The notes under the pieces were generated by a model, which saw only the letters and a list, made by a program, of their open reading frames with translations, was not told where the DNA came from and did not search any database. From Nibricoccus sp. (lineage in GTDB: Bacteria > Verrucomicrobiota > Verrucomicrobiia > Opitutales > Opitutaceae): 64,000 bases of DNA. The stretch lies in the NCBI GenBank assembly GCA_047602425.1, contig JASGHG010000001.1, positions 1,950,263-2,014,262 on the forward strand. The letters run 5' to 3'. A program made the translations under genes and the position numbers. Shown in pieces: positions 2,668 to 53,144 of the stretch (its first letter is position 1; each line of letters begins with the position of its first letter).

Positions 2668-2886
2668 TATCGTATTTGAAATAAATGTTATACAGTACAG
2701 ATCTAATATATAACTTATTATCAGATCTATTTAGGCATTTGTACCTACAGTAGTTATGCCTTTATATAGTTCTATCAGTATGGTTTTATAGAGTATTTTT
2801 CTTGGAGCGTCTGGGCTGCTGGAGGTATAGAAACCAAGAATCATAATATATCTAGTCCAGGTGCATGCCCTTCAATATTTGATCCG

Positions 2887-2900
2887 TTTTCACTGTTAAC
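2887..2900 (-). promoter_or_regulatory. Copy of the recurrent PUL promoter-region motif TTAMCAGTGWAAM
   Basis: Plus strand reads TTTTCACTGTTAAC, so relative to the minus-strand gene starting at 2667 it reads GTTAACAGTGAAAA. Confidence 0.45.
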
Positions 2901-3080
2901 TAACCCCACGCCAGACTGGCATGTGCCACCAGCCGCTTACGAGCGGTCGTAATTCGTAAGCCTGTCGGATAACGAATCACCTTGGTTTGGGCCATTATAA
3001 CCACATATTCGATCGCGAACACTTCAATTGGTTTACAATTCGCCAAAACAACCCCGATGGTGAATCCGTGTTCCAGGGCA

Positions 3081-3128
3081 AAATAAAAGCCTTGGCTCAG
3101 TTGAATCGAGCCAAGGCTTTGTATTTTT
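3081..3128 (-). terminator. Rho-independent (bidirectional-looking) terminator downstream of the TonB-dependent receptor
   Basis: Perfect 10-bp stem GCCTTGGCTC / GAGCCAAGGC (3089-3098 / 3108-3117), flanked by an A-run and a T-run. It lies about 50 nt past the stop at 3169. Confidence 0.7.
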
Positions 3129-3168
3129 CGTCTTAAATACAGGCCGCGAAGAGCCTGAAAGTTAAGAA

Positions 3169-33170: not shown

Positions 33171-33423
33171 GCATTTTTGTCGATATCGTCTGGGTTTACC
33201 TGCCAGATAAAAACAGCCCAACAACACAGCACAGGCTCGCCTTAGCCCCGTCATTTTTCCTAGGTTTTGTCTAAATAAATGCTTAGGTTACCAAAATTTG
33301 GCTATTTTTTGTCACATTTTGACTAAAACGGCTCGCCTGCTTGGCTAATTTGCCTAGTATTCAGGCATGCCTTCACATGCTGTCGCACATACCGCCGCCA
33401 AGGACTCCAACCCTACAGCCAAA

Positions 33424-33726
33424 ATGCGGAAGTTCACCACATCCACACTTCGCAACAAAGTGGGGCGTGTCATCAAGTGTATCAAAAATAACGAGAGCGT
33501 GCTTTTAACTACCCATAAAAAACCGCAGGCAGTCTTGGTCCCCTACGAGGAATATGTTGCAGCCTTCGCTCCCAAACCCAAATCCGAATCGTCCGCTTTG
33601 GAATTCTTAACGACACATTACGCCGAGTTGGCTGAATCCATGAACACCCCCGCTGCGCGTGCCGGTGCCAAGGAAGCATTCGAAGCCGGACCTGATGCGT
33701 TTCGTGACCTTCGACTCACGGAATGA
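33424..33726 (+). CDS. Type II antitoxin, Phd/YefM-like
   Basis: MRKFTTSTLRNKVGRVIKCIKNNESVLLTTHKKPQAVLVPYEEY is a typical Phd/YefM N-terminal fold pattern. Its stop overlaps the start of the next gene (ATGA at 33723-33726). Confidence 0.65.
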   Translation: MRKFTTSTLRNKVGRVIKCIKNNESVLLTTHKKPQAVLVPYEEYVAAFAPKPKSESSALEFLTTHYAELAESMNTPAARAGAKEAFEAGPDAFRDLRLTE

Positions 33727-34379
33727 GCACCAAGTCGAAAGCTAGCGCCGTCCCGCCAGCCAGAATCACTGTTCTTGCCGGTGTCAATGGTTCGGGGAAG
33801 AGCAGCCTGATGGGTGCGTTGCTGCATCAAAAAGGAGTATCGTTTTTCAACCCCGATGCTTTCGCGCGGCTGCTCCGAAAAGTGGATGCCGGTCTGAGCA
33901 TAGAAGCAGCCAATGGCGAGGCATGGAACGTCGGGCGGAAGCAGCTGGAGCATGCGATTAAAAACAAAGCGAGCTACAATTTCGAGACCACCTTGGGTGC
34001 AAATACGATACCTAAGCTCCTCAAACAGGCAGCACTGGAAGGCTTGGAGGTAGTGATATGGTATTGTGGATTGGTCACTCCCGAACTCAATATCCAGCGC
34101 GTTGCACAACGCGTAACCAAAGGAGGCCACGACATCCCAGAAGACAAGATTCGCTCCAGGTGGATTTCCAGCCGTGAAAACTTGATCCACCTCTTGCCAT
34201 TTCTGACCGAGGTCAAAGTGTTCGACAACTCGGCCGAGGCGACGGCGCAATCCGATGGCGGCTTTGCCCCCGCGCCCATTCTGCTACTTCACGTTCGTGG
34301 CAAGAAAATCGTGGCCTGCTCACCTAAGCCACCGGCATGGGCCAAACCGATCATCGCGGCCGCGCGGTTAAACGCGTAG
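33723..34379 (+). CDS. Zeta-toxin-like P-loop kinase / AAA ATPase (putative toxin)
   Basis: Walker A ITVLAGVNGSGKSS near the N-terminus. About 218 aa, translationally coupled to the upstream antitoxin-like gene. Confidence 0.6.
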   Translation: MSTKSKASAVPPARITVLAGVNGSGKSSLMGALLHQKGVSFFNPDAFARLLRKVDAGLSIEAANGEAWNVGRKQLEHAIKNKASYNFETTLGANTIPKLLKQAALEGLEVVIWYCGLVTPELNIQRVAQRVTKGGHDIPEDKIRSRWISSRENLIHLLPFLTEVKVFDNSAEATAQSDGGFAPAPILLLHVRGKKIVACSPKPPAWAKPIIAAARLNA

Positions 34380-36944: not shown

Positions 36945-37098
36945 GGTATTAAATTGAAGATAATATAGCCTGTTTGTTATCGCTAGAGCTCAATTGTGAC
37001 TACAGAGAATGCGGTTTGTCTTTCGCAGCATTATACTTGGTCAAGAGTCAAGACCTGACGTGTTTTTGCTCGTCTGTTGTGACGTGTTTTGCTCGTTT

Positions 37099-37305
37099 TT
37101 AGTCTGTTCTGATTTTCTTGATCGCCAAGGCAATACCGATCAAAAGGAATAGTGATATAAATATCACCGTTATCGCTTTGAATTGAACAGGGCTATAGCC
37201 AAACATAAGGTAGAGGACTGAACACGCGAATAATGACATCACCGCGCCGCCAATAGCACCACACAGTAGTCCGACAACGACAGTATATACTTTATTGTAA
37301 TTCAT
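37099..37305 (-). CDS. Small two-TM membrane protein, putative immunity protein for the RHS C-terminal toxin
   Basis: 68 aa with two hydrophobic helices (VVVGLLCGAIGGAVMSLFACSVLYL; ITVIFISLFLLIGIALAI). Its ATG overlaps the RHS stop codon (ATGA, 37302-37305). Confidence 0.65.
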   Translation of the reverse strand: MNYNKVYTVVVGLLCGAIGGAVMSLFACSVLYLMFGYSPVQFKAITVIFISLFLLIGIALAIKKIRTD

Positions 37306-40300
37306 TTATAATAATTATGAGCGGGTTGCGGTGCTGCACCTCCTGAGAAAAATAAATCCGTGACCGGAGATAAGTTCGCAACGACTACACCGGCCCCGGT
37401 ACCCAACTGGGTACCTAAAGTAGGCGGAGCTTTTTCACCGCGGAATAGGAGCGGCTTCCAACGCCCTTGTAAGGCCCCAGAATCGAGGAGGCCCTGCGTA
37501 AACGGACTTGGTTGCACAAATGACGCAAAGGCCCTTTCTGTGAGATCACCGGCTATAGATCCTCCAGCGCCAAACAGACCTCCTACGGTTGCAGCATACC
37601 CCAAATCTTTTTCCCAATCCGAACCACTAGCCACATTTTTCACTATTTGGCCAGTGCCGTTGATGACCGCACTACCTACACCGTTCAATACGGCACGACC
37701 GAGTATATTAGTCGTAAGCTGTGCAACCTTTCCTCCCAATCCTACGCCTGCCGCTCCAGCAAGACCACTCACTAAAACAGATGTTTTGTTCACCTTCGAC
37801 CAATCTCCATGATTACTTATCAGCTGCACTGTAAGATCTACTCCGGCGCCAATAAAAAAGCCCGCAATAGCCCAAGCAAATTTGCCTTCCGGGTCGGTCA
37901 TCATCACCGGGTTTCCGTTTGCAAACGCATACCAATTCATACCACCCGCAAAGCCAATTGGGTCGGCGTTTAGGAATCGTTGGGTATATGGGTTATAAAA
38001 CCTAGCTCGCATATAAACCAATCCACTCGACTCAGTCATCACTCCCAATGAACCGTGCAGAAGAAATGGAGTGTCAGCGCTGCCAGTTTGTGACCTCACC
38101 TGGCCGTAGGCCGCATATTCCCAACGTCCAAGTACCGAGGTGCCATTGTCGCTTGAGAGGGCGATAGTACTTCCCTGATGGTTGTAGTGGTAGGTTTTAG
38201 TGGCTCCATCTGTTTCTTCGTAAACAAGCCCGATTCCCCAAACATAGCGTGTGATCGTCCCGCCATTGTTGCGCACGAGGACCCGGCTGAGTGAAGCATT
38301 GGGGTCGACCAAGTAGTGGATCGAACCCACCCGATAGCGGTGGCCTTCGGGGTTGTAGCCGTAGCTGACATTGTTGCAGCTGCTGAGTCGATTGCGACCG
38401 TCGTAAGTATAACTGCCGAACGAGCCATCTTTTGGCAATGGACCTAGCGTCATGTTTCCATCGTCGTCGTGAATAACAGGAACGTCGTTCCACGTCTCCA
38501 ATCGGTTGTCGTTGTCGTAGGTCGCCGAGTAATAAGGCGCTGAAGTAACTCCGCCGGAGTCCGAGACCGGAGCGGTAACCGCGAGGTCAATCCGACCATC
38601 CTTGTCGTAGCGCAACACCTGTTGCCAAATCACATTCCCCAAGACATCGAGTTCCTGAACAAAGCAAAGCTGGCTTGCGGCGTCATATTGCATATTTCGC
38701 TTTGTTCCATTGGGCCGATACACCTGTTTGAGCCTGCCTCCTGCATCGTAAGCGTAAGATGTAACCCGCCCGTTCCAGTCACTGACCGATGCCATGCGGT
38801 TGTAGGCATCATATCCATAGGTTACCACCTTGTTGCCTGGGTAGGTGATCGTCTCCAGATTGCCAGCAGCATCATAAGTGTACTGAAGCGTGTTACCATC
38901 TCCATCCCGGTACAATTTCAACCGATTGAAATCGTCGTATTCTCGATGGGTGGTCATGCCGCCCTCCGATACTTCATGCAACATGCCGTTGGGATAATAG
39001 CTGAATGTCGTCTCAATACCCAAACCGTCTTTTTGCTTCAGTAGGCGGCCTTCGGCATCGTACTCTTTGAATTCGGTGACTCGCAGCGAAGGAGCAGTGA
39101 CCGTCTTTAACAAGCCACGCGTATCTTTTTCAACAATCGTACTTTTCTGCTCAGGAGTCTTGGTCGTCACCTTTCGCGCGACATCGTCGTAGGTCCAAGT
39201 ATAAGTCTGCTCCCGCCGGTTCTTGAGCGTTTTTGGACGCCCATCCTTGTCATAGCCATGGATGATCGAAAAGCCCATCGCGTCACCAGTAGAGTCAACT
39301 AAGCCCAAGCTATTGTAGACGCTATCAGTTTCGTGCCCCAGCGCCGTCTTCATGTAGTTACGCTGGCCGTTTGCATCGTAATCGAAATAGGTGTGTCGGA
39401 CGAGTGGATCGATCGTTTCTTTGAGCCGTGACGCGTCGTCATATTTAAACTGCGTATCGTTGCCAAAAGCATCGATAGTGAAGCCCAAGAGATTCCGTTC
39501 GTCGTAATGCTGCGATTTTACTACCTGGCCATCCGCTCCCTTCACCTCAATAAGGTTGCCCAAAGCATCATAGTCATAATCGACTTTATTATTGCGAGGA
39601 TCCAAGATGTAATCAACAGCACCAGCATCATCATATGTCGTCGTGGAAACAATAGAATCGCTCGGCGGAGTTCCTCCCACTGGTGAAGTCGCATCGTAAA
39701 GGCCGGACCATTGAACAGTTTTGGTTTTTTGCCGGCGTTTGTTATATTCGAAGGTCGTTTTCCGTCCACCGCGATCGATGAACTGTATAACATCACCCCG
39801 CGCATTCAGGTCGGTGATCTCGGTTGGGGCGGTCGTATCGGTCGGGGCGGTCGGGTAGGTGGCAGTTACTCGTTTTGTGTAACCCGCGACATCAGTATAC
39901 ACATAGCTAATGACTTCCCCTGCGGCGAATGCTGTCGGGTGTACCGTCAACACACGCCCACGCGAATCGTAAGTATATGAAGTGGTAAAGCCTCCAGTCG
40001 CTGTCACGTTCTTCACTTTGTGATACCCGTAGTATTCCGTAGTCGTTTGATTTCCTTCAAACGAGTTTTCCACACGCGAAGTTGAACTGTCGTCGTTCTC
40101 CGGAGTGATCGTTCGCGAGTTGCCGTCAGGATTGGTAACCTGGTTAACCTCGTGATGGGCGTCATAGGCCATTGTCGTCTCTTCACCTTTGGGCGACCGT
40201 GTATACTCTACCCGGTCGTTTCCGTCGTAGCCCCATCGCGAAACATTGCCGAGTTGGTCTCGGTAGGCGATCTTCCGACCACGCTCATCGAAATACGTCC

Positions 40301-43268
40301 ACGCTATCTTCCCAAGAGGATCTGTTTCGCGAGTCATTCCGCCTGCAAAGCCATAGGTCCAAAGATGCGAGTCCAGCCCCAGGCTTCGTTGTTCTAAAAT
40401 ACGATCCGAAGTATCATAGACATTCGTCACCACGGTACGGCCTCGTGCATCGCTAATCTGCGTCATCAGTCCACGCGAATTAATAGTATACGTAGTTTCC
40501 TTACCCTCGGCATCCTTGAATACAAAATTTCCTTGATTTACGGTGTATTGAACCTCCCGGTCTGTGTTATCGGTGACTGTCTTTAGTCGACCAGATTCAT
40601 AGCCAAAATCGAAATAGCGGCCGAAGCTGTCGGTCACGCGCGTTAGAAGGCCGTTAGCATAAGTAGCGCTCAGTTTTCTTTCGGTTCCCGTGCTATTATT
40701 CTTATCAATAATGTCGGTGAACATTTTGTTCGCATCGAACTTAACCGTGGCTCCCTTTCTAAACTCCATGGTATAGGTCCCGTCGGCAGCCTGTGTAAGC
40801 GTCGCATTGACTCCCGCCGGGGGGGCATAGGTGGTGGTGGTAGCAGTGGAAAGCTTCGGCATTCTCGTAAACTCATAATTCCGAGTTCCAAAAGAAACAG
40901 AGGTCCTAGAATTTACCAGCTGGTCACCGGCCCAATTGGCGATGAGCGCAGGTACCAGCCAATGTTTTGGTGAACCATCCAAGTCGACGACATCCAACAG
41001 GGCGCGGGCAGCAACTACAAATGGCGCAACCTCTGCAGCCGTCGCACGTCGTAAATCGAAATCATTAGGATGCCGCTCTGAAAGTTGAATCGCATAACTG
41101 TGTGTCCAGCCTTTGCCCATTTTCGCCGGATCAGCCAATCGGCGTGCCGACGAATACTGGCGAACCAAAGCAAGCCCATGCGGAGACTCTCCGCCAAGCG
41201 TTAGGTCTGTGTCCTCCTTGTAAAACGCGCCGTTAGTAGTATCGACCGGATCCCATGATAGCGAGAGGGGAAGTGCAGAGGGTGTGTTTGTACCAAAAGT
41301 CGAACTCGCAAAGTAATCCTGATCGAAGGGTGTGACATTCAATTGATTTGGCATAGTCGCATAACCGCCAGCAAGCCCCCCCGTAATACCCATTAAACAG
41401 GTAGCGGCTCCTGAGGCATCTTCGGAGTAAAGCAAATAGCCTGTGCCTTTATACTCGTTTGACCATATTAGGCACTGATTCGGGATCGCTAAGCGTGCTA
41501 CCGGTTTCTCCATCTCGCTTTGAATTGCTGCGATTTCTGTTGCATCGAGTGTAGTGTAATTACCAATTAATGGCTTAATTAATTGGTAGTGGCTGTTGCT
41601 ATTGGCATAATATACATTATGATTATTAGATGAATCGATCCATTCAATCGCCCGTTGCATAAGCTTAACCGTTGATACGGCGGTATCAGGCACAGTCTGC
41701 TCAAGTGTAACATGCTCTAGCGCACTACCCAGATAGTTTCCGGCTAAAAATATCTTTTTACGATCAACCGCATTAACAGATCTGGGCGCAATGTTATCCA
41801 ATCTGAGCGGCAAATCCACATAAGGTGCCATCGAGGGGGTTGTCTTTATTCCGACTATACCAGCAAAACAATCGCACAGTTTTCTGCTACCACCCACAGA
41901 TCCCAGGATTTCATCCAGTAAATTCATCTGATTGAGATACTGCAGTCCAATGATATTAAGGTTCTCGGTTAACAATTTCCTCCCCTGTGGCAACTCCTGG
42001 CTGGTCACATATTCCGATTGTATTTGCAGGCGTTTCGCCAAACGACCAAGGCATTGGTCGAAACCGTACGCAATAACAGAACATCCCGCACGATCCAGTG
42101 CCTTGGCATTTTGTGTAATGGTGTAGGGAATATCCGGGAAAGTGTAGCTAAAGGTAACAGCCGCAACTACGGCCGCATCGACTTCTTCAACCAACATGGT
42201 GTCATCAAGCCAGAGCTGAGCTTTGCCTGAACTAAAATATACCGCCAATTTTTTACCCTGAAGTTCGGCCGTATAAAATGTCTTTTGCAGACTCCCTACT
42301 GTAACCGAAAATGTCATTGCATAATCAGTCGGTATCCCGGCCCACGACACTGCCGGAAATGCCACTGTATCTTCAAACATAACAGAAGGCAATTCCTCCG
42401 GTAGCGCTGTGAAAAATTCTGATTTTAATATAGCTTTGCCACAAATGTCAGCTCCAGATTCATCGTGAACCGTCGTCTGACAATATTGGATAAGACTGGT
42501 AGAGTATGACGACAGTTTATCTCGAAGAGCCGTCAGTCCACTTTGAGTCAGTTTAACCGAAAGCGTCTGATCAGAACCAGCCGCCGCATCATACACCGCA
42601 GCATTGCTGTAGGATATAGCCGAATCCAAGGAAATGGCTGGATTCCGCGAATGTCGCTTGAAGGATGGATCCAAGACGTAGTTTTTTCCAGCTATAGATG
42701 CAATTACCCATACATGGGGTACTCGAATGAAGTCCCGATCATATATGAGCGGGCTATCAAAATAATCGACGCGGCACTGCAACAACTGATCTCCAGCCAA
42801 GCTTGCATCGGACCCCAACCAATCAGCTACATCATTAGGGTCCATAACAACACCCCCAAATTTATAGGATGCATCGGCGCCACTTGCCTTCAATAAGGCC
42901 ACAAGCAAGGCACAGGTATCAAAATCGTTGCCAACTTTTTCCACCAAGGTCAGCTGCGCACCCCGCTTAAGTCCGTGGTAAGGGACGAACTCGATTGTAT
43001 TTTTCACCCACTCATAAATTCTGACAGGGTCGTTATTCAATGCGCTCGCAAGCGCCGTGATCTCCGGAGTAATTTCGTCAGCAACCGGGAGCAGCTGAGT
43101 CACCATATCTCTCGCCGCGACAACCCCCGCAGGTCTGGCCTGAAGCGCAGCGGCAAAACTTCTATTGCGCGCAGTAGCCTCCACAGGCTTAAACGTCCAA
43201 CCAGTTTGGGAGTGAAGCCTAGTGACTGCTAGAAGCAGCATGAGCGCTGATAAAGTGATCTTTTTCAT
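37302..43268 (-). CDS. RHS/YD-repeat toxin (1988 aa) with Sec signal peptide, N-terminal transglutaminase-like domain, RHS core and a glycine-rich C-terminal toxin
   Basis: MKKITLSALMLLLAVTRLHSQ signal. IYEWVKNTIEFVPYHGLKRG...GNDFDTCALLVALLKASG is a transglutaminase-like Cys core. There are dozens of YD repeats (e.g. YTYDSRGRVLTV, FEYNKRRQKT, YDYDALGNLIEV, YGYDAYNRMASV). The RHS-associated core reads YHYNHQGSTIAL...YMRARFYNPYTQRFLNADPIGFAGGMNWYAFANGNPVMMTDPEGK. A 192-aa G/A/V-rich tail follows. Confidence 0.9.
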   Translation of the reverse strand: MKKITLSALMLLLAVTRLHSQTGWTFKPVEATARNRSFAAALQARPAGVVAARDMVTQLLPVADEITPEITALASALNNDPVRIYEWVKNTIEFVPYHGLKRGAQLTLVEKVGNDFDTCALLVALLKASGADASYKFGGVVMDPNDVADWLGSDASLAGDQLLQCRVDYFDSPLIYDRDFIRVPHVWVIASIAGKNYVLDPSFKRHSRNPAISLDSAISYSNAAVYDAAAGSDQTLSVKLTQSGLTALRDKLSSYSTSLIQYCQTTVHDESGADICGKAILKSEFFTALPEELPSVMFEDTVAFPAVSWAGIPTDYAMTFSVTVGSLQKTFYTAELQGKKLAVYFSSGKAQLWLDDTMLVEEVDAAVVAAVTFSYTFPDIPYTITQNAKALDRAGCSVIAYGFDQCLGRLAKRLQIQSEYVTSQELPQGRKLLTENLNIIGLQYLNQMNLLDEILGSVGGSRKLCDCFAGIVGIKTTPSMAPYVDLPLRLDNIAPRSVNAVDRKKIFLAGNYLGSALEHVTLEQTVPDTAVSTVKLMQRAIEWIDSSNNHNVYYANSNSHYQLIKPLIGNYTTLDATEIAAIQSEMEKPVARLAIPNQCLIWSNEYKGTGYLLYSEDASGAATCLMGITGGLAGGYATMPNQLNVTPFDQDYFASSTFGTNTPSALPLSLSWDPVDTTNGAFYKEDTDLTLGGESPHGLALVRQYSSARRLADPAKMGKGWTHSYAIQLSERHPNDFDLRRATAAEVAPFVVAARALLDVVDLDGSPKHWLVPALIANWAGDQLVNSRTSVSFGTRNYEFTRMPKLSTATTTTYAPPAGVNATLTQAADGTYTMEFRKGATVKFDANKMFTDIIDKNNSTGTERKLSATYANGLLTRVTDSFGRYFDFGYESGRLKTVTDNTDREVQYTVNQGNFVFKDAEGKETTYTINSRGLMTQISDARGRTVVTNVYDTSDRILEQRSLGLDSHLWTYGFAGGMTRETDPLGKIAWTYFDERGRKIAYRDQLGNVSRWGYDGNDRVEYTRSPKGEETTMAYDAHHEVNQVTNPDGNSRTITPENDDSSTSRVENSFEGNQTTTEYYGYHKVKNVTATGGFTTSYTYDSRGRVLTVHPTAFAAGEVISYVYTDVAGYTKRVTATYPTAPTDTTAPTEITDLNARGDVIQFIDRGGRKTTFEYNKRRQKTKTVQWSGLYDATSPVGGTPPSDSIVSTTTYDDAGAVDYILDPRNNKVDYDYDALGNLIEVKGADGQVVKSQHYDERNLLGFTIDAFGNDTQFKYDDASRLKETIDPLVRHTYFDYDANGQRNYMKTALGHETDSVYNSLGLVDSTGDAMGFSIIHGYDKDGRPKTLKNRREQTYTWTYDDVARKVTTKTPEQKSTIVEKDTRGLLKTVTAPSLRVTEFKEYDAEGRLLKQKDGLGIETTFSYYPNGMLHEVSEGGMTTHREYDDFNRLKLYRDGDGNTLQYTYDAAGNLETITYPGNKVVTYGYDAYNRMASVSDWNGRVTSYAYDAGGRLKQVYRPNGTKRNMQYDAASQLCFVQELDVLGNVIWQQVLRYDKDGRIDLAVTAPVSDSGGVTSAPYYSATYDNDNRLETWNDVPVIHDDDGNMTLGPLPKDGSFGSYTYDGRNRLSSCNNVSYGYNPEGHRYRVGSIHYLVDPNASLSRVLVRNNGGTITRYVWGIGLVYEETDGATKTYHYNHQGSTIALSSDNGTSVLGRWEYAAYGQVRSQTGSADTPFLLHGSLGVMTESSGLVYMRARFYNPYTQRFLNADPIGFAGGMNWYAFANGNPVMMTDPEGKFAWAIAGFFIGAGVDLTVQLISNHGDWSKVNKTSVLVSGLAGAAGVGLGGKVAQLTTNILGRAVLNGVGSAVINGTGQIVKNVASGSDWEKDLGYAATVGGLFGAGGSIAGDLTERAFASFVQPSPFTQGLLDSGALQGRWKPLLFRGEKAPPTLGTQLGTGAGVVVANLSPVTDLFFSGGAAPQPAHNYYK

Positions 43269-43287: not shown

Positions 43288-44094
43288 TTACTGAGGTCCT
43301 TCCACGTTCCCTTCCTTGTCATATTTATGCGTTCGCGTGGGATCAGCTGTGAGACGATTATTTGCGTCATACTGATAACGGGCGGTGGCTGCTGGGTTGG
43401 GCGTGCTAGCCGCATTGTACGGACTGGAACCACTCGCAATCTCGACATAGTCGGGGTAGCCATCGTTATCGAAATCGATCGATGCAGCTGGAGACTCGAT
43501 CGTGAATCTCTTTCGCACCGTAGGGGTAGAGGCCCCTGAACGATCAGTGACTATAACAACCACAAAATGCAGTCCCGTACCCAGTTCGATGGGACAACAC
43601 GTGTAGCTAAAGCCTGCTCCGAGGTATCGGCTTGATGGCCCCGGGTATCCCAATGAGTTTACGGAATAGTCAGCAATATCCGGTCGGGCGAGTCCTACCG
43701 AAGGCCTTCCGACAAATATACCGTCGATGTATATTTTTATCGAATCGACCGGTGTCCCATCATCCCGGTCGACTGCCCACCCGCCTATATTCAAAATCCC
43801 CCCCTGCAGGTAAGCCGTTTCCAACGATGCAAGGGGCGGAGAGTTCACAATCGCATGGAAATAACTTCCTTCCCTGGCTTGAAAGCCGGCCTTTAAGACA
43901 ATCTGAGACGATGCAGAATACGTTACATTGGCACCGCTTTCAACAGTCACATTTGGGCCAGCCTCAATCGTCGATGGTCCTGAGACGGTCGTTGAGACCC
44001 CTGAAGAATACGTAACATCCTGTATGATTGTTTGGGCTCTGAGTCCCAACGCGGTCAACAACCAAAATAAAAGCAACAATGGAATTCGTTTCAT
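43288..44094 (-). CDS. Secreted accessory protein: LKAGFQAREG-type module, Ig-like domain, DNDG calcium-binding-like motif, C-terminal YD repeat
   Basis: Signal peptide MKRIPLLLLFWLLTALGLRAQ. SSQIVLKAGFQAREGSYFHAIV, IDFDNDGYPDYVE, and a terminal YQYDANNRLTADPTRTHKYDKEGNV. Its stop lies 19 nt upstream of the RHS start. Confidence 0.7.
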   Translation of the reverse strand: MKRIPLLLLFWLLTALGLRAQTIIQDVTYSSGVSTTVSGPSTIEAGPNVTVESGANVTYSASSQIVLKAGFQAREGSYFHAIVNSPPLASLETAYLQGGILNIGGWAVDRDDGTPVDSIKIYIDGIFVGRPSVGLARPDIADYSVNSLGYPGPSSRYLGAGFSYTCCPIELGTGLHFVVVIVTDRSGASTPTVRKRFTIESPAASIDFDNDGYPDYVEIASGSSPYNAASTPNPAATARYQYDANNRLTADPTRTHKYDKEGNVEGPQ

Positions 44095-44149: not shown

Positions 44150-45062
44150 CTAGTTACTGCTCTTGAGCCGTGTGATTTCCGTTTGTTGAGCAGCTATTTG
44201 AAAAGCTTGGGCTTCGATTTTAGATTTCTGTTCGTTAAGCTGTTTCTGCTGGTTGATGACGTGCAAAGTCAGCTCTTCAACTTTAGCCAAGAGGATCGGC
44301 CTGCATATCGCCGATGGAGACGCCGTTGGCAGCAACCTCCGTCGCCGAGGGCACGCCGGGCAAATGGCCTTGCTGCTCGATATGCCGCTCCACCTCGGCA
44401 AGCGGTGCTAACTTGTAGTCTTTGGCAAAAACGCAGTCCGACCAGTTGGTGGTTTCAACAACCACTTCTCTCGCGCGAATCCTTCCATTGACCGAAAGCT
44501 TTTCATTCGGGCTCGTCGTTCCGATACCGACATTTCCACCAACTGCTATATGTAATCTTGAAGTTTTCGCTGAATTAAAATCCTCAACGATATCGAAGGA
44601 GTTAGAGTTCCTAGCTACGGAACCACAAGTTAGCCCCCAACTATTGCCATAGGCATTCAATGAAAGCACTGCTTCAGCCAGCACACTTTGGCTATCGTTG
44701 CGTACCGCCGCTACAACTGCACTATCTACCGTCTTCCACAGATGCAGATCATAAATTGGTCCTACAGACCCAATGCCAATGTTGCCGTTATTATCAATCC
44801 GAAGACGGACCATTCCCGCTACATCATCATAGAATTGAAATCCTCCAGGAGTACCCACGCTTGGACCAAGTCGAAAACTGTGACCCAAAGAGTCCTGCAA
44901 TTGCAGAGGGTCCGTCGCAGTATTACCGACTAGCGTCAGTCTTGCTGCAGGATTGCTAGTACCAATACCGACATTGCCTGATTCAGGCCAAGGATAAGTA
45001 TTTTGAGAGTAACCAGCAGCTGAGGTCATGAGAAACGTAACAAAAGCGGCGATCTTTTTCAT
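44150..45062 (-). pseudogene. Tail-fibre-like secreted protein, paralogue 1 of 9 (frameshifted in the conserved C-terminal module)
   Basis: ORF 44283-45062 ends ...GVSIGDMQADPLG*. The expected continuation ILLAKVEELTLHVINQQKQL...coiled coil is in ORF 44150-44401 in another frame. An extra C sits in GCAGGCCGATCC (about 44298-44301), where intact paralogues read GCAGGCGATCC. Confidence 0.8.
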
Positions 45063-45076
45063 GGGGGTAATAAAAG

Positions 45077-46285
45077 CTATAATGTTTTATTCAGTTTTGT
45101 GTTTTCTGTTTTAAGAGCGGCAATTTCGGCTTGTTGGTCATTGAGACGCTTCTCTTGCTGGATCTGGCGGAGCGTCAGTTCTTCAATCTTGGCGAGGAGG
45201 ATTGCTTGCATATCACCGACGGAGACGCCTTTGGCGGCGACTTCCTGCGCGGAGGGGACTCCGGGGAGGTGCCCTTGTCGTTCGATGTGTTGCTCGACTT
45301 CGCTGAGCGGTGCCAGCTTGTATTCCTTAGCGAAAACGTAGTCTGACCAATTCGTCGTCTCCACGATCACTTCCCTCGCCCGAATCCTGCCATTGACCGA
45401 AAGCTTCTCATTCGGGCTTGTCGTACCTATGCCGACGTTGCCATCGCCACGTATCACCATCTTTGAGTTTGCTGGAGCCGATCCCTTGAGTCGGAAATCG
45501 ATAAATGTATTGTCACTATTATAAGTGTTAGCTATAAAAACCTTGTTAGCGGTTGGATCCTCACCAAGCCGACCCATGTAGTACGTTTGTGATCCGAACG
45601 CAATGACCTCTCCATCGGTGTCATCCCATCGCCTTACGTCCAAAATGGCGCTAGGACTTGCGGTGGCTATACCGATTTTCCCACCGCTCCCTGTAACAAA
45701 CATAGCGTCATTAAGGTTAAGGATCTTGTATAGGGATTGCGTTCGATCATATGAGATCAGTCTCCCTCGATCGGCCGATGTTTGATATGTGAGCTCAACA
45801 CCTCTACCAACCGAAGGCAGTCCGACCTCATCCGTAACAGACACTGCACCTGCAATATCTAGCTTAGATCTCGGGGTAATCGTACCCACTCCGACGTCAC
45901 CTGAGCCGCCCAATACAGTGATCCCTCCTCCGTATAAGTCGCCACTACTTAAGGGACCACCAAGAAAAACACGATCGTTAACCGCTCGCAATACGCCGAT
46001 CCAATCCGAACCCGCCTGATTTGGGGCTAATATCCCACTGTTACCGACAAGGATTTGCCCAGCGCCTGTGAAATTGCCACCCGGGACAAGCGCTGGATCG
46101 ACATTCAGCGCAAGCGACCGTGCTGGCTGATTCACGCCTAGACGCAATGCCTTGTAGTACGAGCTATACCCAAAGTTTGTTTCCTGAATGGGAATCTGAT
46201 CGGGTCCTACGTAAACCGTCTGCGCGAGAACAGACGCAACTGCAGCAACTGCAAACAGGACTAGGATGCTAAGATTTTTTTTCAT
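45077..46285 (-). CDS. Tail-fibre-like secreted protein, paralogue 2 of 9
   Basis: Signal peptide and a divergent N-terminus. Internal GDVGVGTITPRSKLDI / GKIGIATASPSAILDV. Conserved C-module GNVGIGTTSPNEKLSVNGRIRAREVIVETTNWSDYVFAKEYKLAPLSEVEQHIERQGHLPGVPSAQEV...MQAILLAKIEELTL plus a coiled coil. Confidence 0.85.
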   Translation of the reverse strand: MKKNLSILVLFAVAAVASVLAQTVYVGPDQIPIQETNFGYSSYYKALRLGVNQPARSLALNVDPALVPGGNFTGAGQILVGNSGILAPNQAGSDWIGVLRAVNDRVFLGGPLSSGDLYGGGITVLGGSGDVGVGTITPRSKLDIAGAVSVTDEVGLPSVGRGVELTYQTSADRGRLISYDRTQSLYKILNLNDAMFVTGSGGKIGIATASPSAILDVRRWDDTDGEVIAFGSQTYYMGRLGEDPTANKVFIANTYNSDNTFIDFRLKGSAPANSKMVIRGDGNVGIGTTSPNEKLSVNGRIRAREVIVETTNWSDYVFAKEYKLAPLSEVEQHIERQGHLPGVPSAQEVAAKGVSVGDMQAILLAKIEELTLRQIQQEKRLNDQQAEIAALKTENTKLNKTL

Positions 46286-47277
46286 TTTTGGCCTTCTTTC
46301 TCAATTAGCTTTTGCTGAAGCCGGACATTTTCCGATTCGAGAGTTTGAACTCGTTTTTCCTGTGCAATTACGTGCAGCGTTAATTCTTCAATTTTCCCCA
46401 AGAGGATGGCTTGCATGTTGCCGACAGAGACGCCGTTGGCAGCAACCTCCTTCGCCGACGGCACGCCTGGCAAATGACCTTGCTGCTCGATATGCTGCTC
46501 CACCTCGGAAAGCGGTGCTAACTTGTAGTCCTTGGCAAAAACGCAGTCCGACCAGTTGGTGGTTTCAACAACCACTTCCTTCGCCCGAATTTTGCCATTG
46601 ACCGAGAGCTTTTCGGTCGGGCTCGTCGTGCCGATGCCGACGTTGCCGGAAGCTGCCAAATATACCCTCTCGGTCCCGTCGGTAACTGGATTTCCACCCA
46701 AGGCATTGGACTGCATAAAAGCGAGATCACCGTAGGAGGTTCTGCCTTGCACGAGCGCCCAATTTCTCGAATTTGATTGTGTATAATCATTCAAAAACGC
46801 GATCCCACTTCCGCCTATACCTGACAAACCAGTATCATGAAATGCGGTAATAATATTCTGAGATACCTTTGCCACTTCCAACGCATAACCCGGCGCTGAA
46901 GTTCCGATGCCAACATTATTGTTGGCTTTTAGCACAATGTATCCACCCGCAGGATTATTTCGATTAAATAGGAATATATCCTCACCTGTCGTACTTCCAT
47001 TAAAGATCCCGATTGCTCCACTACTGAAACCAACATTATAGACATTTCCGCTTTGTCCTGCATAAAAATTACCGTGGTTGAAGCCCCAGTACCCCTGAGG
47101 CGCTTTCGCGATAAAGCTGATTAGCCCATTGGCTGTAATCGTACCATTTACTTCGAGAGCTGAAGTCGGGTTCATTGTACCAATACCGACACTTCCGGAC
47201 GCCGGCCAGGGAGTATTTTGTGCATAGCTGCTGACCGCGCCGATGAATGACGACAAGACTATCGATAGAATTTTCAT
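46282..47277 (-). CDS. Tail-fibre-like secreted protein, paralogue 3 of 9
   Basis: Signal peptide, YAQNTPWPASGSVGIGTMNP, and the conserved C-module. Its stop overlaps the start of paralogue 2 by 4 nt. Confidence 0.85.
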   Translation of the reverse strand: MKILSIVLSSFIGAVSSYAQNTPWPASGSVGIGTMNPTSALEVNGTITANGLISFIAKAPQGYWGFNHGNFYAGQSGNVYNVGFSSGAIGIFNGSTTGEDIFLFNRNNPAGGYIVLKANNNVGIGTSAPGYALEVAKVSQNIITAFHDTGLSGIGGSGIAFLNDYTQSNSRNWALVQGRTSYGDLAFMQSNALGGNPVTDGTERVYLAASGNVGIGTTSPTEKLSVNGKIRAKEVVVETTNWSDCVFAKDYKLAPLSEVEQHIEQQGHLPGVPSAKEVAANGVSVGNMQAILLGKIEELTLHVIAQEKRVQTLESENVRLQQKLIEKEGQK

Positions 47278-47342
47278 GATGAAGAACTCGACAAGTAACG
47301 TGCGAATAATCGGGATCCAGAAACGAAAGAATTATGACTTTG

Positions 47343-48581
47343 CTAGGGATGGGTGGATTTTAGATGGGCAATCTCGGCTTGTTGGGCGGCAATTTGCGTC
47401 TGTTGCGTATTTAGCTGCTTCTGCTGGCGGATCACGTGCAGTGTGAGCTCTTCGATTTTCGCGAGGAGGATAGCTTGCATATCGCCAATGGAGACACCGT
47501 TGGCTGCAACCTCCTTCGCTGAGGGCACGCCGGGCAAATGACCTTGCTGTTCGATGTGCTGTTCCACCTCGGAAAGCGGTGCTAACTTGTAGTCCTTGCC
47601 AAAAATATGGTCCGACCAGTTGGTGGTTTCAACAACCACTTCTCTTGCACGAACTCGGCCGTTGACCGAAAGTTTCTCGCTCGGATTCGTCGTACCGATA
47701 CCGACGTTGCCCAAAGGATCAATGGTAGCGGCATCTAGGTTGCTATTACCGTCCGAAACACGGAACGTTATTCTCCCCTTAGTGCCGCCGGCATAAACAG
47801 AGCCGAAGTATGCGTTATCGCCACCCTCGCCGGATGCTCCCCCTCCATACGAAACAAATGCGTAGCAGTTTGAAGAATTCGGTCTTGAAACTCGCAACCC
47901 GTCAGAAAGCAATCCGGCACTATTTAAATTCTGAACATGAAGTTTTGCTTCCGGGCTGGCGGGGCCAACGGCGAGGCTGCCCGTAGTCACGATATTTGTA
48001 TTCGTTGAAGTTATGAGATTTCCAGCAATAATGTGTGCCTGCCCTCCAGCTGGAGTTTCCTCAACATTATGTATAGTAATGGCGCCTTTGCTATCTATTA
48101 CACGCCACGCTACAGTCGGTGCATATTCCGACGCTCGGATTCTAATATATACCGTACGCGGCCCGCCGGTGCTACCAACCACGCGGACTTCCCGAAGATG
48201 CTCATTGTAAGTTTGTCGCTCTACACTAAAACCCACGCGGTCATTAAAGTAGGTTCCAAAAACCTTCACTTCGGCAATTTCTTCGCTCGCATTCGAACCA
48301 CTGCGAATTTGAAACCTAACGTAGTGGTTGTTAGGAATTGTCGCTAATTTGATCCATCTTTCATCACCAATCCCGAGGGATATACTTTGCAGCGAGGAGA
48401 AATATAGTTCTCCGATTCTAAATGATCCTCCTACATGAGTGTCACCACTCACATCGAGGGTAAAATTAGGATTAGTCGTGCCAATTCCAACGTTCCCGGA
48501 CGCGGGCCAAGGATACGTGTTTTGAGCATAAGTGCTGCCTGCAAAAACAAGCCCAAATATAAATGAGATGAAATATTTCAT
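47343..48581 (-). CDS. Tail-fibre-like secreted protein, paralogue 4 of 9
   Basis: Signal peptide, YAQNTYPWPASGNVGIGTTNP, a unique core, and the conserved C-module plus coiled coil. Confidence 0.85.
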   Translation of the reverse strand: MKYFISFIFGLVFAGSTYAQNTYPWPASGNVGIGTTNPNFTLDVSGDTHVGGSFRIGELYFSSLQSISLGIGDERWIKLATIPNNHYVRFQIRSGSNASEEIAEVKVFGTYFNDRVGFSVERQTYNEHLREVRVVGSTGGPRTVYIRIRASEYAPTVAWRVIDSKGAITIHNVEETPAGGQAHIIAGNLITSTNTNIVTTGSLAVGPASPEAKLHVQNLNSAGLLSDGLRVSRPNSSNCYAFVSYGGGASGEGGDNAYFGSVYAGGTKGRITFRVSDGNSNLDAATIDPLGNVGIGTTNPSEKLSVNGRVRAREVVVETTNWSDHIFGKDYKLAPLSEVEQHIEQQGHLPGVPSAKEVAANGVSIGDMQAILLAKIEELTLHVIRQQKQLNTQQTQIAAQQAEIAHLKSTHP

Positions 48582-48598
48582 TGATTCTGAATTTACGA

Positions 48599-49804
48599 TT
48601 ACTTGGCCTGCGCTTTAAGCCGTGTATTTTCTGACTCCAAAGCTTCGATACGCTTTTCTTGTCTAATTGCGTGGAGCGTTAACTCTTCAATCTTAGCCAA
48701 TAGAATCGCTTGCATTTCGCCCATCGAAACCCCTTTCTCCGCCACGTCTTTCGCCGAAGGAACGCCAGGGAGATGCTTCTCGATTATGATGTGCTGTTCA
48801 ACCTCGGTCAAAGGCTGCAACTTGTACCCATCGGCAAACACGTAGTCCGACCAATTCGTCGTCTCTACGACCACTTCTCTTGCGCGGATTCGGCCGTTGA
48901 CTGACAGTTTTTCGGTTGGGCTCGTCGTACCGATGCCAACGTTGCCACCTTCGGGATTCAATAAGAGGGAATAACTAGTTCCACTCTGCAATGTAGTATT
49001 ACCTGTGGCATTATTATACAATTCCAGCGTCCCGGCTTGCGCCGCAGTTGGTGTACCGTAACCAAGTCCAGAGCCAAGTTTTCCGCTATTGGATATGGCA
49101 ACGCTTCCGCAAACTTCTAATGTTTTGGATGGACTCGTCGTTCCGATGCCGACGCTGCCATTCGCATCAATACGCATACGTTCGGATATATTGACTGCGC
49201 CTCCATCAGTCGACGTTTGAACGGGCCCCGTTAAAAACGCAATGTATCCTCCGTTGGCCTCGATTGCTGAACGTGATGCTGGAACCTCGGTGCTGGATAC
49301 ATAACCAATGTCCAAATGTTTTGCCTTAACGGCATAGCCAAGAAACGACGCACCAGAACTATATTGCGAACCAAGCACGAACAGCGTGCCGCTGCCATAC
49401 GCACCGTAGAGATAGTCCACCCCCCAAGTGCTGTTATCATAGCCAGCGGTAATCGGGCCAATCACATGCAACGGTGTGCGTGGGCTCGTCGTGCCAATAC
49501 CGACGTTGCCGCCGCCGGGGTTAAGGCTTAACGGGTAGTACTGTACTCCGGTTTTCATCGCTTGGACGTATCCATAACCGAAGTCGGCTCGAAAACCGAT
49601 TCGCGTGCCTTCTGGGCTTCCATCTCCAGGATCAGACGAAGCCGCACCACTAAAGAGACCTGAGCCGACAACCGCCAATTTCGTACTAGCTCCCGGGTTA
49701 GTCGTTCCGATACCAATGTTGCCGGAGTTCTGCCAGAGGTTTGTTTGAGCGTAGCTGGTGGTAATGACGGCGAGCGGAAAAAGGAGGACTGTGTAGATTT
49801 TCAT
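48599..49804 (-). CDS. Tail-fibre-like secreted protein, paralogue 5 of 9
   Basis: Signal peptide and four GN(V/I)GIGTT punctuation motifs (GNIGIGTTNPGAS, GNVGIGTTSPRTPLHV, GSVGIGTTSPSKTLEV, GNVGIGTTSPTEKLSV), then the conserved C-module. Confidence 0.85.
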   Translation of the reverse strand: MKIYTVLLFPLAVITTSYAQTNLWQNSGNIGIGTTNPGASTKLAVVGSGLFSGAASSDPGDGSPEGTRIGFRADFGYGYVQAMKTGVQYYPLSLNPGGGNVGIGTTSPRTPLHVIGPITAGYDNSTWGVDYLYGAYGSGTLFVLGSQYSSGASFLGYAVKAKHLDIGYVSSTEVPASRSAIEANGGYIAFLTGPVQTSTDGGAVNISERMRIDANGSVGIGTTSPSKTLEVCGSVAISNSGKLGSGLGYGTPTAAQAGTLELYNNATGNTTLQSGTSYSLLLNPEGGNVGIGTTSPTEKLSVNGRIRAREVVVETTNWSDYVFADGYKLQPLTEVEQHIIIEKHLPGVPSAKDVAEKGVSMGEMQAILLAKIEELTLHAIRQEKRIEALESENTRLKAQAK

Positions 49805-49849
49805 ATGGATGTTTTAACCACTGATATTCATTGATGAACACTGATATAG

Positions 49850-50791
49850 TTATATACTCCCGGCTTTGAGCTGGGCGTTTTCCGCTTCGAGGGCTTTGAT
49901 TCGCTCGTTCTGCGATGCGAGCTGTTTCGCTTGCTGAATTTGATGCAATGTCAGTTCCTCAATCTTCGCCAAGAGGATCGCCTGCATGTAGCCAATGGAG
50001 ACGCCCTTCTCAGCCACTTCTTTCGCGGACGGAACTCCGGGAAGATGCTTCTCGGTTATGATGTGCAGCTCCACCTCGGCGAGTGACTGCACCTTATAGC
50101 CGTCGACAAACACATAATCCGCCCAGTTCGCTGTCTCCACAATCACTTCCCTCGCGCGGATTCGGCCGTTGACTGAGAGCTTTTCCGATGGGCTCGTCGT
50201 GCCGATGCCGACGTTGCCAGTGTTGGCTTGAATTCTTACCTTCTCGCTGCCGTCCAGATTGAACGTTATGAATCCACCAAAACCCGATGTTCCGGACTGT
50301 AGTTTTAATTCGCCGCTTTGAATATTAGCCAATAGGTTCGCCTGTATGCTTCCGTTCGTAGCGAAATTTATTCCTTTAAACTGGGAATTGTCGGTGCCGT
50401 TTAGAGTTAAAATTGGCGCAATACCCTTAACTTCCAGCAAGCTTGCCGGCGTAGTCGTGCCGATACCTATTTTACCACCGTTGGGATTTAAAAGTAGTGG
50501 ATAAATTTGAGTGAGATCCGTTTGGTTTGTTACCTGCAACGACCCTCCATCGCCGCCGTTCACGCTAAAATCAATCACGCCATTGCTACCCGCTCCCTGT
50601 AACCGAAGGATTCCAACTTGGTTTGATCCACTGCTCGCAGGAAAGCCGGTATCGCCAAGGATGTGTGTTCTCAATCCCGGGCTCACAATTCCGATGCCAA
50701 TATTACCGGAGGCAGGCCATGGATAAGTGTTTTGCGCGTAGCTATTGGCTATAATGGCGAGCGAAGTGAGGAGGAGTGCAAAAGATTTCAT
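49850..50791 (-). CDS. Tail-fibre-like secreted protein, paralogue 6 of 9
   Basis: Start placed at the internal MKSFALLLTSLAIIANSYAQ|NTYPWPASGNIGIG. Conserved C-module present. Confidence 0.85.
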   Translation of the reverse strand: MKSFALLLTSLAIIANSYAQNTYPWPASGNIGIGIVSPGLRTHILGDTGFPASSGSNQVGILRLQGAGSNGVIDFSVNGGDGGSLQVTNQTDLTQIYPLLLNPNGGKIGIGTTTPASLLEVKGIAPILTLNGTDNSQFKGINFATNGSIQANLLANIQSGELKLQSGTSGFGGFITFNLDGSEKVRIQANTGNVGIGTTSPSEKLSVNGRIRAREVIVETANWADYVFVDGYKVQSLAEVELHIITEKHLPGVPSAKEVAEKGVSIGYMQAILLAKIEELTLHQIQQAKQLASQNERIKALEAENAQLKAGSI

Positions 50792-50840
50792 CGGGGCATT
50801 TTCAACCACTGATTTTCACTAACGACCATGGATATAGGTT

Positions 50841-51896
50841 TTATTGGGATCGGGCTTTGAGCTGGCTGTTCTCGGTCTTGAGCGTGGTGACTTCAGCGCG
50901 AAGAGAGGCCAGTTCTTTTTCCTGCGCTATCTGGTGCAGTGTAATCTCCTCAATCTTGGCGAGCAGGATCGCCTGCATGTCGCCGAGTGAGACGCCGTTG
51001 GCTGTCACATCCTTCGCGGATGGGACGCCAGGGAGGTGCTTCTCCATTTTAATGTGCTGCTCGACCTCTGCCAAAGGTCGCAACCTGTAGCTATCTGCGA
51101 AAACGTAATCTGACCAATTGCTCGTCTCTACGACTACTTCTCTCGCACGGATTCGGCCGTTGACCGAAAGTTTTTCCGATGGACTCGTCGTACCTATGCC
51201 AACGTTGCCGTTCGATCCTTGTATAAACATTCGAATGCTCGGAGTATAAGCTGATCCGATGGTCAGGCCGATATTCGTGCTAATCGCCAGATTTCCAGCG
51301 GAGAAACTAACCTGCCCAGAATTTGAATCTCGAGCGATCCACCCGTTGCCCGATATGTATTCAGCATTGTGTGTTATTGCCAGTTCCCCGGAGTATCCGC
51401 TAAAATAGCCTCCACCCTGACCGCTGTTCAGGTTAACACGCAAAGATGTACCGGTGTCGCCAGGGCTGCCATAGCATTTATCGGCATAAATCACCGGAAT
51501 GTTGGTGCCCGTTGTAGGGCCAAGAATGTGCAGCGATGCTGTCGGAGCCGACGCGCCGATTCCAATACGACCAGCAGCATCAATTAATAATCTATCGGCG
51601 CAAGCAAGATTGTCAGCGAAATGCCATTTGCTTTCACCAGATCCGTCCACGTATATACCAAAGGTTCGCCCACCGACCGCTGTGTTGGAAAACTGAATCC
51701 CTGAACCCCAGCCGGGACCATTGCCGGTGAGATAAATCGCGGGAAAATTAACCGACGCCGAGTCTATATGCAAACGGCCAGAAACAGGGATGGTCGTTCC
51801 GATGCCAATATTTCCTGAATTCTGCCACAAATTGGACTGAGCATAACCAGCCGTTGTGGACGCAAAGACAATAAAATGAACCAAAGTGAATTTCAT
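50841..51896 (-). CDS. Tail-fibre-like secreted protein, paralogue 7 of 9
   Basis: Signal peptide, YAQSNLWQNSGNIGIGTT, and the conserved C-module plus coiled coil. Confidence 0.85.
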   Translation of the reverse strand: MKFTLVHFIVFASTTAGYAQSNLWQNSGNIGIGTTIPVSGRLHIDSASVNFPAIYLTGNGPGWGSGIQFSNTAVGGRTFGIYVDGSGESKWHFADNLACADRLLIDAAGRIGIGASAPTASLHILGPTTGTNIPVIYADKCYGSPGDTGTSLRVNLNSGQGGGYFSGYSGELAITHNAEYISGNGWIARDSNSGQVSFSAGNLAISTNIGLTIGSAYTPSIRMFIQGSNGNVGIGTTSPSEKLSVNGRIRAREVVVETSNWSDYVFADSYRLRPLAEVEQHIKMEKHLPGVPSAKDVTANGVSLGDMQAILLAKIEEITLHQIAQEKELASLRAEVTTLKTENSQLKARSQ

Positions 51897-51909
51897 CGAA
51901 TCATACTTG

Positions 51910-53115: not shown

Positions 53116-53144
53116 TATTTTATGAAGTTAAATCTAGAATAGAC

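Follow-up and report, generated by a model that had tools for sequence, protein, structure and literature searches.

The DNA analyzed here, called the window, is a stretch of 64,000 nucleotides (nt) from Nibricoccus sp. (contig JASGHG010000001.1, positions 1,950,263 to 2,014,262 of the forward strand). Its minus strand carries a gene for an RHS/YD-repeat polymorphic toxin that ends in a glycine-rich C-terminal tail (CT), together with a small open reading frame (ORF) that is coupled to the toxin stop codon and encodes a candidate immunity protein with two transmembrane (TM) segments. An original prediction, made from the letters of the window, had already placed both ORFs, the tail that follows DPEGK, and the ATGA overlap at these positions, and our coordinates agree with it. 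The features that concern us most are as follows.

37302..43268, minus strand: RHS/YD-repeat polymorphic toxin gene, one open frame of 1988 codons encoding 1988 amino acids
43209..43268, minus strand: Sec-type signal peptide MKKITLSALMLLLAVTRLHSQ, read from the translation of the RHS protein
37881..38117, minus strand: RHS-associated core (TIGR03696, 1.3e-19; residues 1718-1795), from the NCBIfam scan
37305..37880, minus strand: 192-amino-acid predicted C-terminal toxin domain (the CT), glycine-zipper, all-helical in the AlphaFold2 (AF2) model; the tail after ...NPVMMTDPEGK
37731..37868, minus strand: Tse5-CT-like N-terminal module, CT residues 5-50, with a GxxxGxGxDxxxQ helix, a ...VN... loop, and a GxxGxGxG helix
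37515..37604, minus strand: helix 4, CT residues 93-122, zipper A96/G100/G104/G107/G111, from the AF2 model and family conservation
37347..37418, minus strand: C-terminal helix, CT residues 155-178, zipper G156/G160/G164/A(S)168-N169, from the AF2 model and family conservation
37099..37305, minus strand: 68-amino-acid two-TM immunity candidate, whose ATG overlaps the toxin TGA as ATGA

The RHS protein begins with the signal peptide and continues through a weak transglutaminase-like region (a sub-threshold Pfam match at residues 66-144), a DUF6531 plug (residues 673-741), YD repeats, the RHS core, and the C-terminal toxin. The repeats match RHS_repeat (PF05593) in 17 stretches with an E value of 1.2e-50, and TIGR01643 in nine. 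The hallmarks of RHS/YD polymorphic toxins are thus all present, including the repeats, the DUF6531 plug, a core with DPxG...DPxG, and a variable tip with a small coupled ORF.

The aspartyl autoprotease motif of the core, DPIG-x19-DPEG, is intact, and its 19-residue spacing is the same as that in Tse5 orthologs (DPLG-x19-DPTG). The sequence across the predicted cut is ...DPIGFAGGMNWYAFANGNPVMMTDPEGK|FAWAIAG.... Cleavage of Tse5 is documented one residue after DPxG, i.e., after DPxGL (PMC10684867). Because the Tse5 cut sits at this position, the fragment freed after DPEGK would, by analogy, comprise residues 1797-1988 (window positions 37305-37880).

No PAAR domain was found in the RHS protein by Pfam, and the protein does not have the PAAR-like N terminus, and appears not to have the delivery by VgrG and a type VI secretion system (T6SS), that are typical of the Tse5 family. 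A second RHS gene in the same genome likewise begins with a Sec-type signal peptide and is without PAAR.

The C-terminal domain family and its relation to Tse5

The original prediction described the tail as dominated by small residues in GxxxG-like spacing. The first part of this description is correct, since the CT contains 17.2% Gly and 12.5% Ala, compared with 8.1% and 8.5% in the remainder of the RHS protein, where charged residues are also about twice as frequent. The second part does not hold for the single sequence. The CT has 26 small-xxx-small spacings vs. 24.8±3.2 in shuffled sequences (p=0.41) and seven GxxxG spacings vs. 5.4 (p=0.28), and the proposal that the zipper spacing of this one sequence exceeds chance was therefore rejected. 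There are two canonical (G/A/S)xxxGxxxG strings, A96-G100-G104 and G156-G160-G164. The peptides that had been quoted from the CT are present, although one of them missed a residue (the true text is GRAVLNGVGSAVINGTG). The zipper of the CT is real only at the level of the family, where i/i+4 glycines are conserved over 86 aligned relatives.

To define this family, we scanned the whole of a set of 1.84 billion representative proteins with phmmer at a threshold of E ≤ 1e-3. The scan returned 91 proteins, of which 14 reach ≤1e-10. Apart from the CT itself, the best match (P0003) is 56% identical with an E value of 8e-44. In at least 62 of 90 relatives the domain starts straight after NPxxxxDPxG. 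The remaining relatives are mostly fragments that begin within the domain, and three are repeat-protein noise. The median tip length is 184 amino acids. A word-indexed search with the family alignment gave only six matches, which served as a way into the loci, and the family also occurs in the Gammaproteobacteria Congregibacter and Paraglaciecola. A word-indexed search for the CT within full-length RHS proteins returned solely the protein itself, and no match was obtained when the single CT was searched against genome contigs or when plasmids were searched with tblastn.

Conservation was assessed in the alignment of 86 sequences. In helix 1, the conserved positions are G7, G11, G13, D15 (or E), and Q19, with D15(E) and Q19 nearly invariant. 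N31 is conserved as well, as are G42, G45, G47, and G49 in helix 2. Helix 3 contributes R62, N66, and N82, helix 4 contributes G100, G104, G107, and G111, and the last helix contributes G160, G164, S168 (an alanine in the window), and N169. The zipper positions G100/G104/G107/G111 and G160/G164/S168 are conserved in 47%-90% of the sequences, and hence the CT has a glycine-zipper motif that is both present and retained across relatives. The alignment contains no invariant His, Cys, Lys, or Glu residues of the enzyme type. The conserved columns, which are zipper-spaced glycines plus D15, Q19, N66, and N82, therefore do not look catalytic. Because the 91 relatives exhibit position-specific conservation, the CT family is a conserved domain and not low-complexity noise.

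An AF2 model built with the family alignment (predicted local distance difference test score 76, predicted template modeling score 0.47) is all-helical, with five long helices and one short helix spanning CT residues 2-22, 32-55, 59-85, 93-122, 126-133, and 155-178. A Foldseek search of the PDB with this model gave nothing below an E value of 0.75, and the weak neighbors are mostly integral membrane proteins. The CT likewise has no match in Pfam, NCBIfam, PHROG, or PDB sequences. These searches bear out the earlier remark that the tail carries no nuclease, deaminase, or ADP-ribosyltransferase motif, and the profile-library comparison that had been suggested as a check (Pfam and NCBIfam) matched no enzymatic toxin family.

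A connection to a characterized toxin emerged when the family profile was compared with 177,635 PDB sequences. Tse5's C-terminal toxin domain (Tse5-CT; chain 8cp6_C, 149 amino acids) ranked second, with an E value of 0.57 and agreement in two motifs (GAGIELGMQ vs. GaGiDlavQ, and INWKHVGASAAIG vs. vnvtsvgvsgaaG). Aligning the family with the single Tse5-CT sequence in hhalign gave a probability of 81%. We then used a Tse5-CT set of ten loci (L028-L037) from Pseudomonas species, Phytopseudomonas, Trinickia, and a distant metagenome-assembled genome of Chiayiivirga. Profile–profile comparison of the 86-sequence family with this 10-sequence set yielded a probability of 94.9% and an E value of 4.8e-8 over 46 columns. 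CT residues 5-50 are paired with Tse5-CT residues 16-79, which are equivalent positions just past the cleavage site. The score of 50.8 is to be compared with 10.7±2.1 (maximum 18.4) for 100 column shuffles and 13.1 for a reversed alignment.

Searches with hidden Markov models (HMMs) also point to a distant relationship. The CT family HMM scores Tse5-CT orthologs at 16-30 bits (29 bits for L028) and the distant Tse5 homolog from Chiayiivirga (L037) at 31 bits. With the Tse5 HMM as the query, members of the CT family reach E ≥ 0.47 at best (Z=1e6). Judging from its sequence (...IEGKSLSEVDGSDVMVAAGIGAV...), the Chiayiivirga homolog seems to stand midway between Tse5-CT and the CT family. Past residue ~50 the two families part ways. 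The basic amphipathic C-terminal region that is conserved in L028-L037 (LSGQAANTANRAAKLAARKAAH) does not occur in the window CT, where its place is taken by three additional zipper helices. We read the CT family and Tse5-CT as distant relatives that share an N-terminal module, and we do not take the window CT to be a Tse5-CT ortholog.

A genome of the same order (L049 in genome G437, minus strand, 637-2333) encodes a further RHS tip that is short and Tse5-like. In it, the shared module of ~60 amino acids is followed by a lysine-rich amphipathic region (KVGKALKAKKTLSRLRKKR), and the next gene encodes a 151-amino-acid protein with three or four TM segments. This tip, too, looks intermediate between Tse5-CT and the window CT family.

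Tse5-CT has been shown experimentally to be a cation-conducting, depolarizing, membrane-inserting toxin, and Tsi5 is an inner-membrane immunity protein with two predicted TM helices (PMC9637101). The suggestion in the original prediction that the tail resembles a pore former is thus upheld as far as sequence evidence goes, in that the CT is a conserved, helical zipper domain of non-enzymatic appearance with an N-terminal module homologous to that of Tse5-CT. The accompanying statement that the pair belongs to no named family is true for Pfam and NCBIfam. It needs amending for Tse5/Tsi5, whose architecture is shared and whose toxin appears to be a distant relative.

Coupled two-TM ORFs and genomic setting

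The 68-amino-acid product consists of two hydrophobic stretches (~5-38 and 38-66) with a short loop and a KKIRTD tail, and the GC content of its ORF is 40.6%. The closest toxin homolog (P0003) is followed by an ORF of 65 amino acids that likewise overlaps the toxin gene by 4 nt and shares 35% identity with the 68-amino-acid ORF (E 2e-11). This conservation marks the small ORF as a genuine gene that is inherited together with the toxin.

We examined ten loci in which a homolog of the CT stands alone (L015, L016, L018, L019, L021, L024, L025, L026, L047, and L048). At every one of them, an ORF of 57-109 amino acids with two hydrophobic helices is coupled to the toxin stop. Measured from where the toxin stop codon ends, the ORF starts lie between 24 nt upstream (overlaps of 1-24 nt) and 4 nt downstream, and the overlap at L018 is 7 nt if the in-frame Met of the ORF is the start. 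A weaker relative (L022) has a toxin followed by a 142-amino-acid multi-TM protein. The Tsi5 genes in the loci we fetched have the same layout, in that the stop of tse5 is overlapped by a two-TM ORF of 56-77 amino acids; in L028, L032, and L037 the overlap is ATGA. A small two-TM ORF directly downstream, which is the Tsi5-type architecture, is likewise what is found in the window.

The immunity ORFs of L015, L018, and L021 are related to one another, and those of the other loci belong to other two-TM sequence families. None has detectable similarity to Tsi5, and comparisons among them revealed similarity within subfamilies only. On this basis the immunity genes are polyphyletic or fast-evolving, and their variety is the rapid pairwise co-diversification that is expected of immunity genes. 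Channel-forming effectors are almost always neutralized by membrane immunity proteins according to a review (PMC12744356). The proposal that the 68-amino-acid two-helix protein is an immunity candidate is strengthened by the related ORF behind the closest toxin and by the coupled ORFs at all ten loci, and the protein is almost certainly the antidote to the CT.

The exact sequence of this ORF is absent from a collection of 15 billion proteins in which the RHS protein is present, and therefore it was probably never called as a gene. A word-indexed homolog search with the ORF gave no candidates, and PHROGs contained no match for it or for the toxin. Among public sequencing runs, in which transcription of the ORF might have been seen, none is listed as containing this stretch. 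Scans for promoters and terminators around the cassette found none, and there is no terminator-like hairpin between the ORF and the next gene. At window positions 37064-37103, across the stop of the ORF and just downstream from it, the sequence TTTTGCTCGT(C/T)T(G/T)TT(G/A)GT occurs twice, with 23 nt between the copies.

The gene behaves as a polymorphic toxin. The RHS genes of related genomes align with the window protein only up to residues ~1796-1804, beyond which the tips differ. The CT tip family is present in five of 401 genomes of the order, and a set of 401 genomes from the phylum contained a single strong case. With this sporadic occurrence, which extends to Gammaproteobacteria, the tip family is a horizontally shuffled cassette. 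Two further RHS genes in the same genome have unrelated tips and are followed by soluble candidate immunity ORFs (194 and 124 amino acids), and one of the two is the gene mentioned above that begins with a Sec-type signal peptide:

C1:334969-335205: further RHS gene, 2256 amino acids
C1:4847010-4847210: further RHS gene, 2570 amino acids

The island that holds the RHS gene and a set of fiber-like genes (window 33000-54300) has a GC content of 49.7%, compared with 57.4% for the genome and ~56%-57% for the flanks within the window, which is consistent with horizontal acquisition. Several other features of this neighborhood were recorded. Immediately upstream of the RHS gene is a gene for a 268-amino-acid protein with a signal peptide (window 43288-44094, minus strand) that has no Pfam match and carries a free-standing YD-like repeat (ARYQYDANNRLTADPTRTHKYDKEGN) at its end. 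Some ten secreted paralogs form a tandem array directly upstream of the RHS gene (window 44283-54197, minus strand); they have variable cores, a common C-terminal module (...GNVGIGTTSPSEKLSVNGRIRAREVVVETTNWSDYVFA...), and weak PHROG matches to tail fibers. At the edge of the low-GC island, the gene for a Phd/YefM-like antitoxin (119 amino acids) shows translational coupling to that for a zeta-toxin/AAA_33-like P-loop protein (218 amino acids; window 33367-34379, plus strand). Another genome of the same genus (L044 in genome G403, 571-4688) has orphan RHS C-terminal modules in a string, among them one Gly-rich tip of a different kind and one PT-HINT module whose C-terminal domain contains “AAHLEAHGG.” Behind each of these modules lies a candidate immunity gene for a soluble protein.

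Proposed mechanism and alternative explanations

The best explanation for these findings is that the window encodes a Tse5/Tsi5-like system, in which an RHS-encapsulated, membrane-depolarizing toxin from an unnamed family distantly related to Tse5-CT is paired with a co-translated two-TM immunity protein. We consider this explanation to be probably correct. If so, then the RHS protein would be exported through Sec, given its signal peptide and the lack of a PAAR domain, and the YD-repeat shell would enclose the 192-amino-acid C-terminal fragment until the RHS aspartyl autoprotease frees it by cutting after DPEGK. At the envelope of a rival cell, the fragment would insert its five long glycine-zipper helices and one short helix into the cytoplasmic membrane. 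The small-residue faces of the helices could then drive oligomerization into an ion-conducting pore, and the membrane potential would collapse. D15, Q19, N66, and N82 could be the residues that line the pore or pair the helices. The co-translated inner-membrane protein would bind the toxin within the bilayer and in this way protect the producer and its siblings.

Several observations weigh against this proposal. Homology with Tse5-CT spans only ~46 of the 192 CT residues, the C-terminal two-thirds cannot be aligned, and the basic LSGQAANTANRAAK region of Tse5 is absent. Moreover, the 68-amino-acid protein has no sequence similarity to Tsi5. Classical TM hydrophobicity is reached by helix 1 only (1.62), and the other helices have values of 1.1-1.5. 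The AF2 model has a predicted template modeling score of only 0.47 and is without a significant structural neighbor. T6SS cargo is not normally made with a Sec signal peptide, and the sole T6SS sheath gene of the genome, TssC (C1:962314-963222), is ~1 Mb from the RHS gene. A final observation is that one relative uses CT family positions 1-124 as a pre-toxin module.

This relative, P0108 (L045 431-2364 in genome G409, from the same order), is a 474-amino-acid RHS tip in which the RHS core is followed by family positions 1-124 (128 bits), a PT-HINT domain (PF07591, 3e-14), and an extra C-terminal domain of ~110 residues. The next gene encodes a soluble DUF7738 protein, and a small TM ORF is not present. 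Therefore, the module is not always the toxin itself. Its arrangement in P0108 suggests that the four-helix module can be a pre-toxin element, possibly one that aids cargo into or across the membrane. A membrane immunity gene accompanies the stand-alone form whereas a soluble partner accompanies the form that bears cargo, which argues that the stand-alone five-helix form is itself a membrane-active toxin.

P0108 also lends some credence to the alternative that the zipper helices are mainly a pre-toxin device for insertion or translocation, so that the CT in the window would be a vehicle without cargo or would be toxic as a side effect. That only the first ~46 residues are common to the CT and Tse5-CT fits this view as well, since the module behaves as a reusable unit. 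However, HINT domains occur in none of 90 representative relatives, and the long-tailed relatives have no enzymatic domain after the module. The stand-alone form, with a median of 184 amino acids and its own conserved zipper helix at the end, is the rule, and it always has a membrane immunity gene, implying that it does harm in the membrane by itself. Furthermore, Tse5-CT shares the module and is a proven pore former (PMC9637101). For these reasons we regard this alternative as unlikely.

A broader version of the idea would accommodate both arrangements. The four-helix module of ~125 residues could be an autonomous device for membrane insertion or translocation, partly shared with Tse5-CT, that acts as a depolarizing toxin when it is alone with a fifth zipper helix and, when it precedes PT-HINT and a soluble domain as in P0108, as a ferry that takes this cargo through the inner membrane of the target. 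This proposal is tentative, and we view it as unlikely. If true, it would explain how Sec-exported RHS toxins reach cytoplasmic targets without an injection machine.

We judge it very improbable that the CT is an unrecognized enzymatic toxin, acting on lipids or on a cell-wall precursor, that is blocked at the membrane by the small TM protein. In its favor, enzymes are common among RHS tips, D15(E) and Q19 hardly vary in the family, and a missing profile match is no proof of absence. In contrast, the invariant columns are mostly glycines, the predicted long helices form no globular core with a pocket, and no enzymatic family was found in Pfam, NCBIfam, PDB sequences, or by Foldseek against the PDB. 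This candidate was rejected because no enzymatic Pfam family was matched in the window CT, in 35 relatives scanned singly, or in ten long-tailed relatives.

The idea that the CT is a non-functional, low-complexity remnant and the 68-amino-acid ORF a chance open frame could draw on the zipper spacing of the single sequence, which is no more than composition predicts, and on the absence of the exact ORF from protein records, but it is scarcely credible given 91 relatives with position-specific conservation, an ORF kept at 35% identity with the same 4-nt overlap behind the nearest toxin homolog, and coupled two-TM ORFs at 10 of 10 loci.

An RHS toxin with membrane immunity is a kind of system that is already known, and the CT family is what is unnamed. 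To our knowledge, Tse5-CT is the only characterized family of RHS-borne membrane-depolarizing toxins. The CT family, which comprises ~90 clusters at 50% identity and is covered by neither a Pfam nor an NCBIfam model, would be a searchable addition to these few toxins that is tied to Tse5-CT by sequence. Small coupled two-TM ORFs behind such tips make a reliable rule for annotation, and D15, Q19, N66, and N82 together with the four zipper segments offer concrete targets for dissecting Tse5-like pore formation. The rare relative that combines the module with PT-HINT and cargo hints at translocation, which bears on how RHS toxins cross the inner membrane of target cells.

Comparison with known systems

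The nearest known system is Tse5 (RhsP1, PA2684) and Tsi5 of Pseudomonas aeruginosa. Like the window protein, Tse5 has an RHS shell and a DPxG-x19-DPxG autoprotease followed by a hydrophobic, Gly/Ala-rich, helical CT (PMC9637101, PMC10684867). The first ~46 CT residues are homologous and follow the pattern GxxxGxGx(D/E)xxxQ ... (V/I)NW..V..S...G. Immediately downstream in both systems is a two-TM ORF (56-77 amino acids for Tsi5, 68 in the window) that overlaps the toxin stop in most loci. The two systems also differ. Tse5-CT has 149 amino acids, including a long inserted loop and a C-terminal region that is basic and amphipathic, whereas the window CT has 192 amino acids, five long helices, and four zipper-bearing segments. 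The Gly content is 9% in Tse5-CT and 17% in the window CT, and Tsi5 has no detectable sequence similarity to the 68-amino-acid protein. Tse5 has a PAAR-like N terminus and rides on VgrG4 and the H1-T6SS, whereas a Sec signal peptide and a transglutaminase-like region are found at the N terminus of the window protein.

The ionophore toxins of contact-dependent inhibition (CDI) systems, such as CdiA-CT EC93 and “type 10,” are similar by description. They are polymorphic tips with about five predicted membrane-spanning helices and a glycine zipper, they have no database designation, as is true for the window CT, and their immunity proteins (CdiI) are small, very hydrophobic, highly polymorphic membrane proteins (PMC11630599). 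In contrast to the window CT, which follows an RHS core, the CDI toxins are carried on CdiA after VENN and have an N-terminal receptor-specific entry domain. No protein of the CdiA-CT EC93 type is among the 91 phmmer matches of the CT.

Glycine-zipper toxins of type VII secretion systems, including TspA/TsaI, EsxX/ExiCD, and TelE, also have a C-terminal helical zipper domain that depolarizes membranes, and membrane-embedded immunity proteins guard against the secreted form (PMC12744356, PMC10434224). Unlike the window toxin, they are borne on LXG carriers of Gram-positive type VIIb systems and have a single extended zipper rather than four segments, and nothing points to homology with it. EsxX additionally requires a soluble cytoplasmic immunity protein, which would be unnecessary for the window toxin because of its RHS shell.

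The last group for comparison consists of PT-HINT (PF07591) pre-toxin modules, together with Agrobacterium Tde1, whose glycine zipper is of the translocation type (PMC10240207). The module that lies upstream of PT-HINT in P0108 resembles such modules, which aid the passage of a toxin through the target membrane. The window protein differs from them in that it has no HINT or extra cargo domain, and its partner is a membrane protein and not a soluble one.

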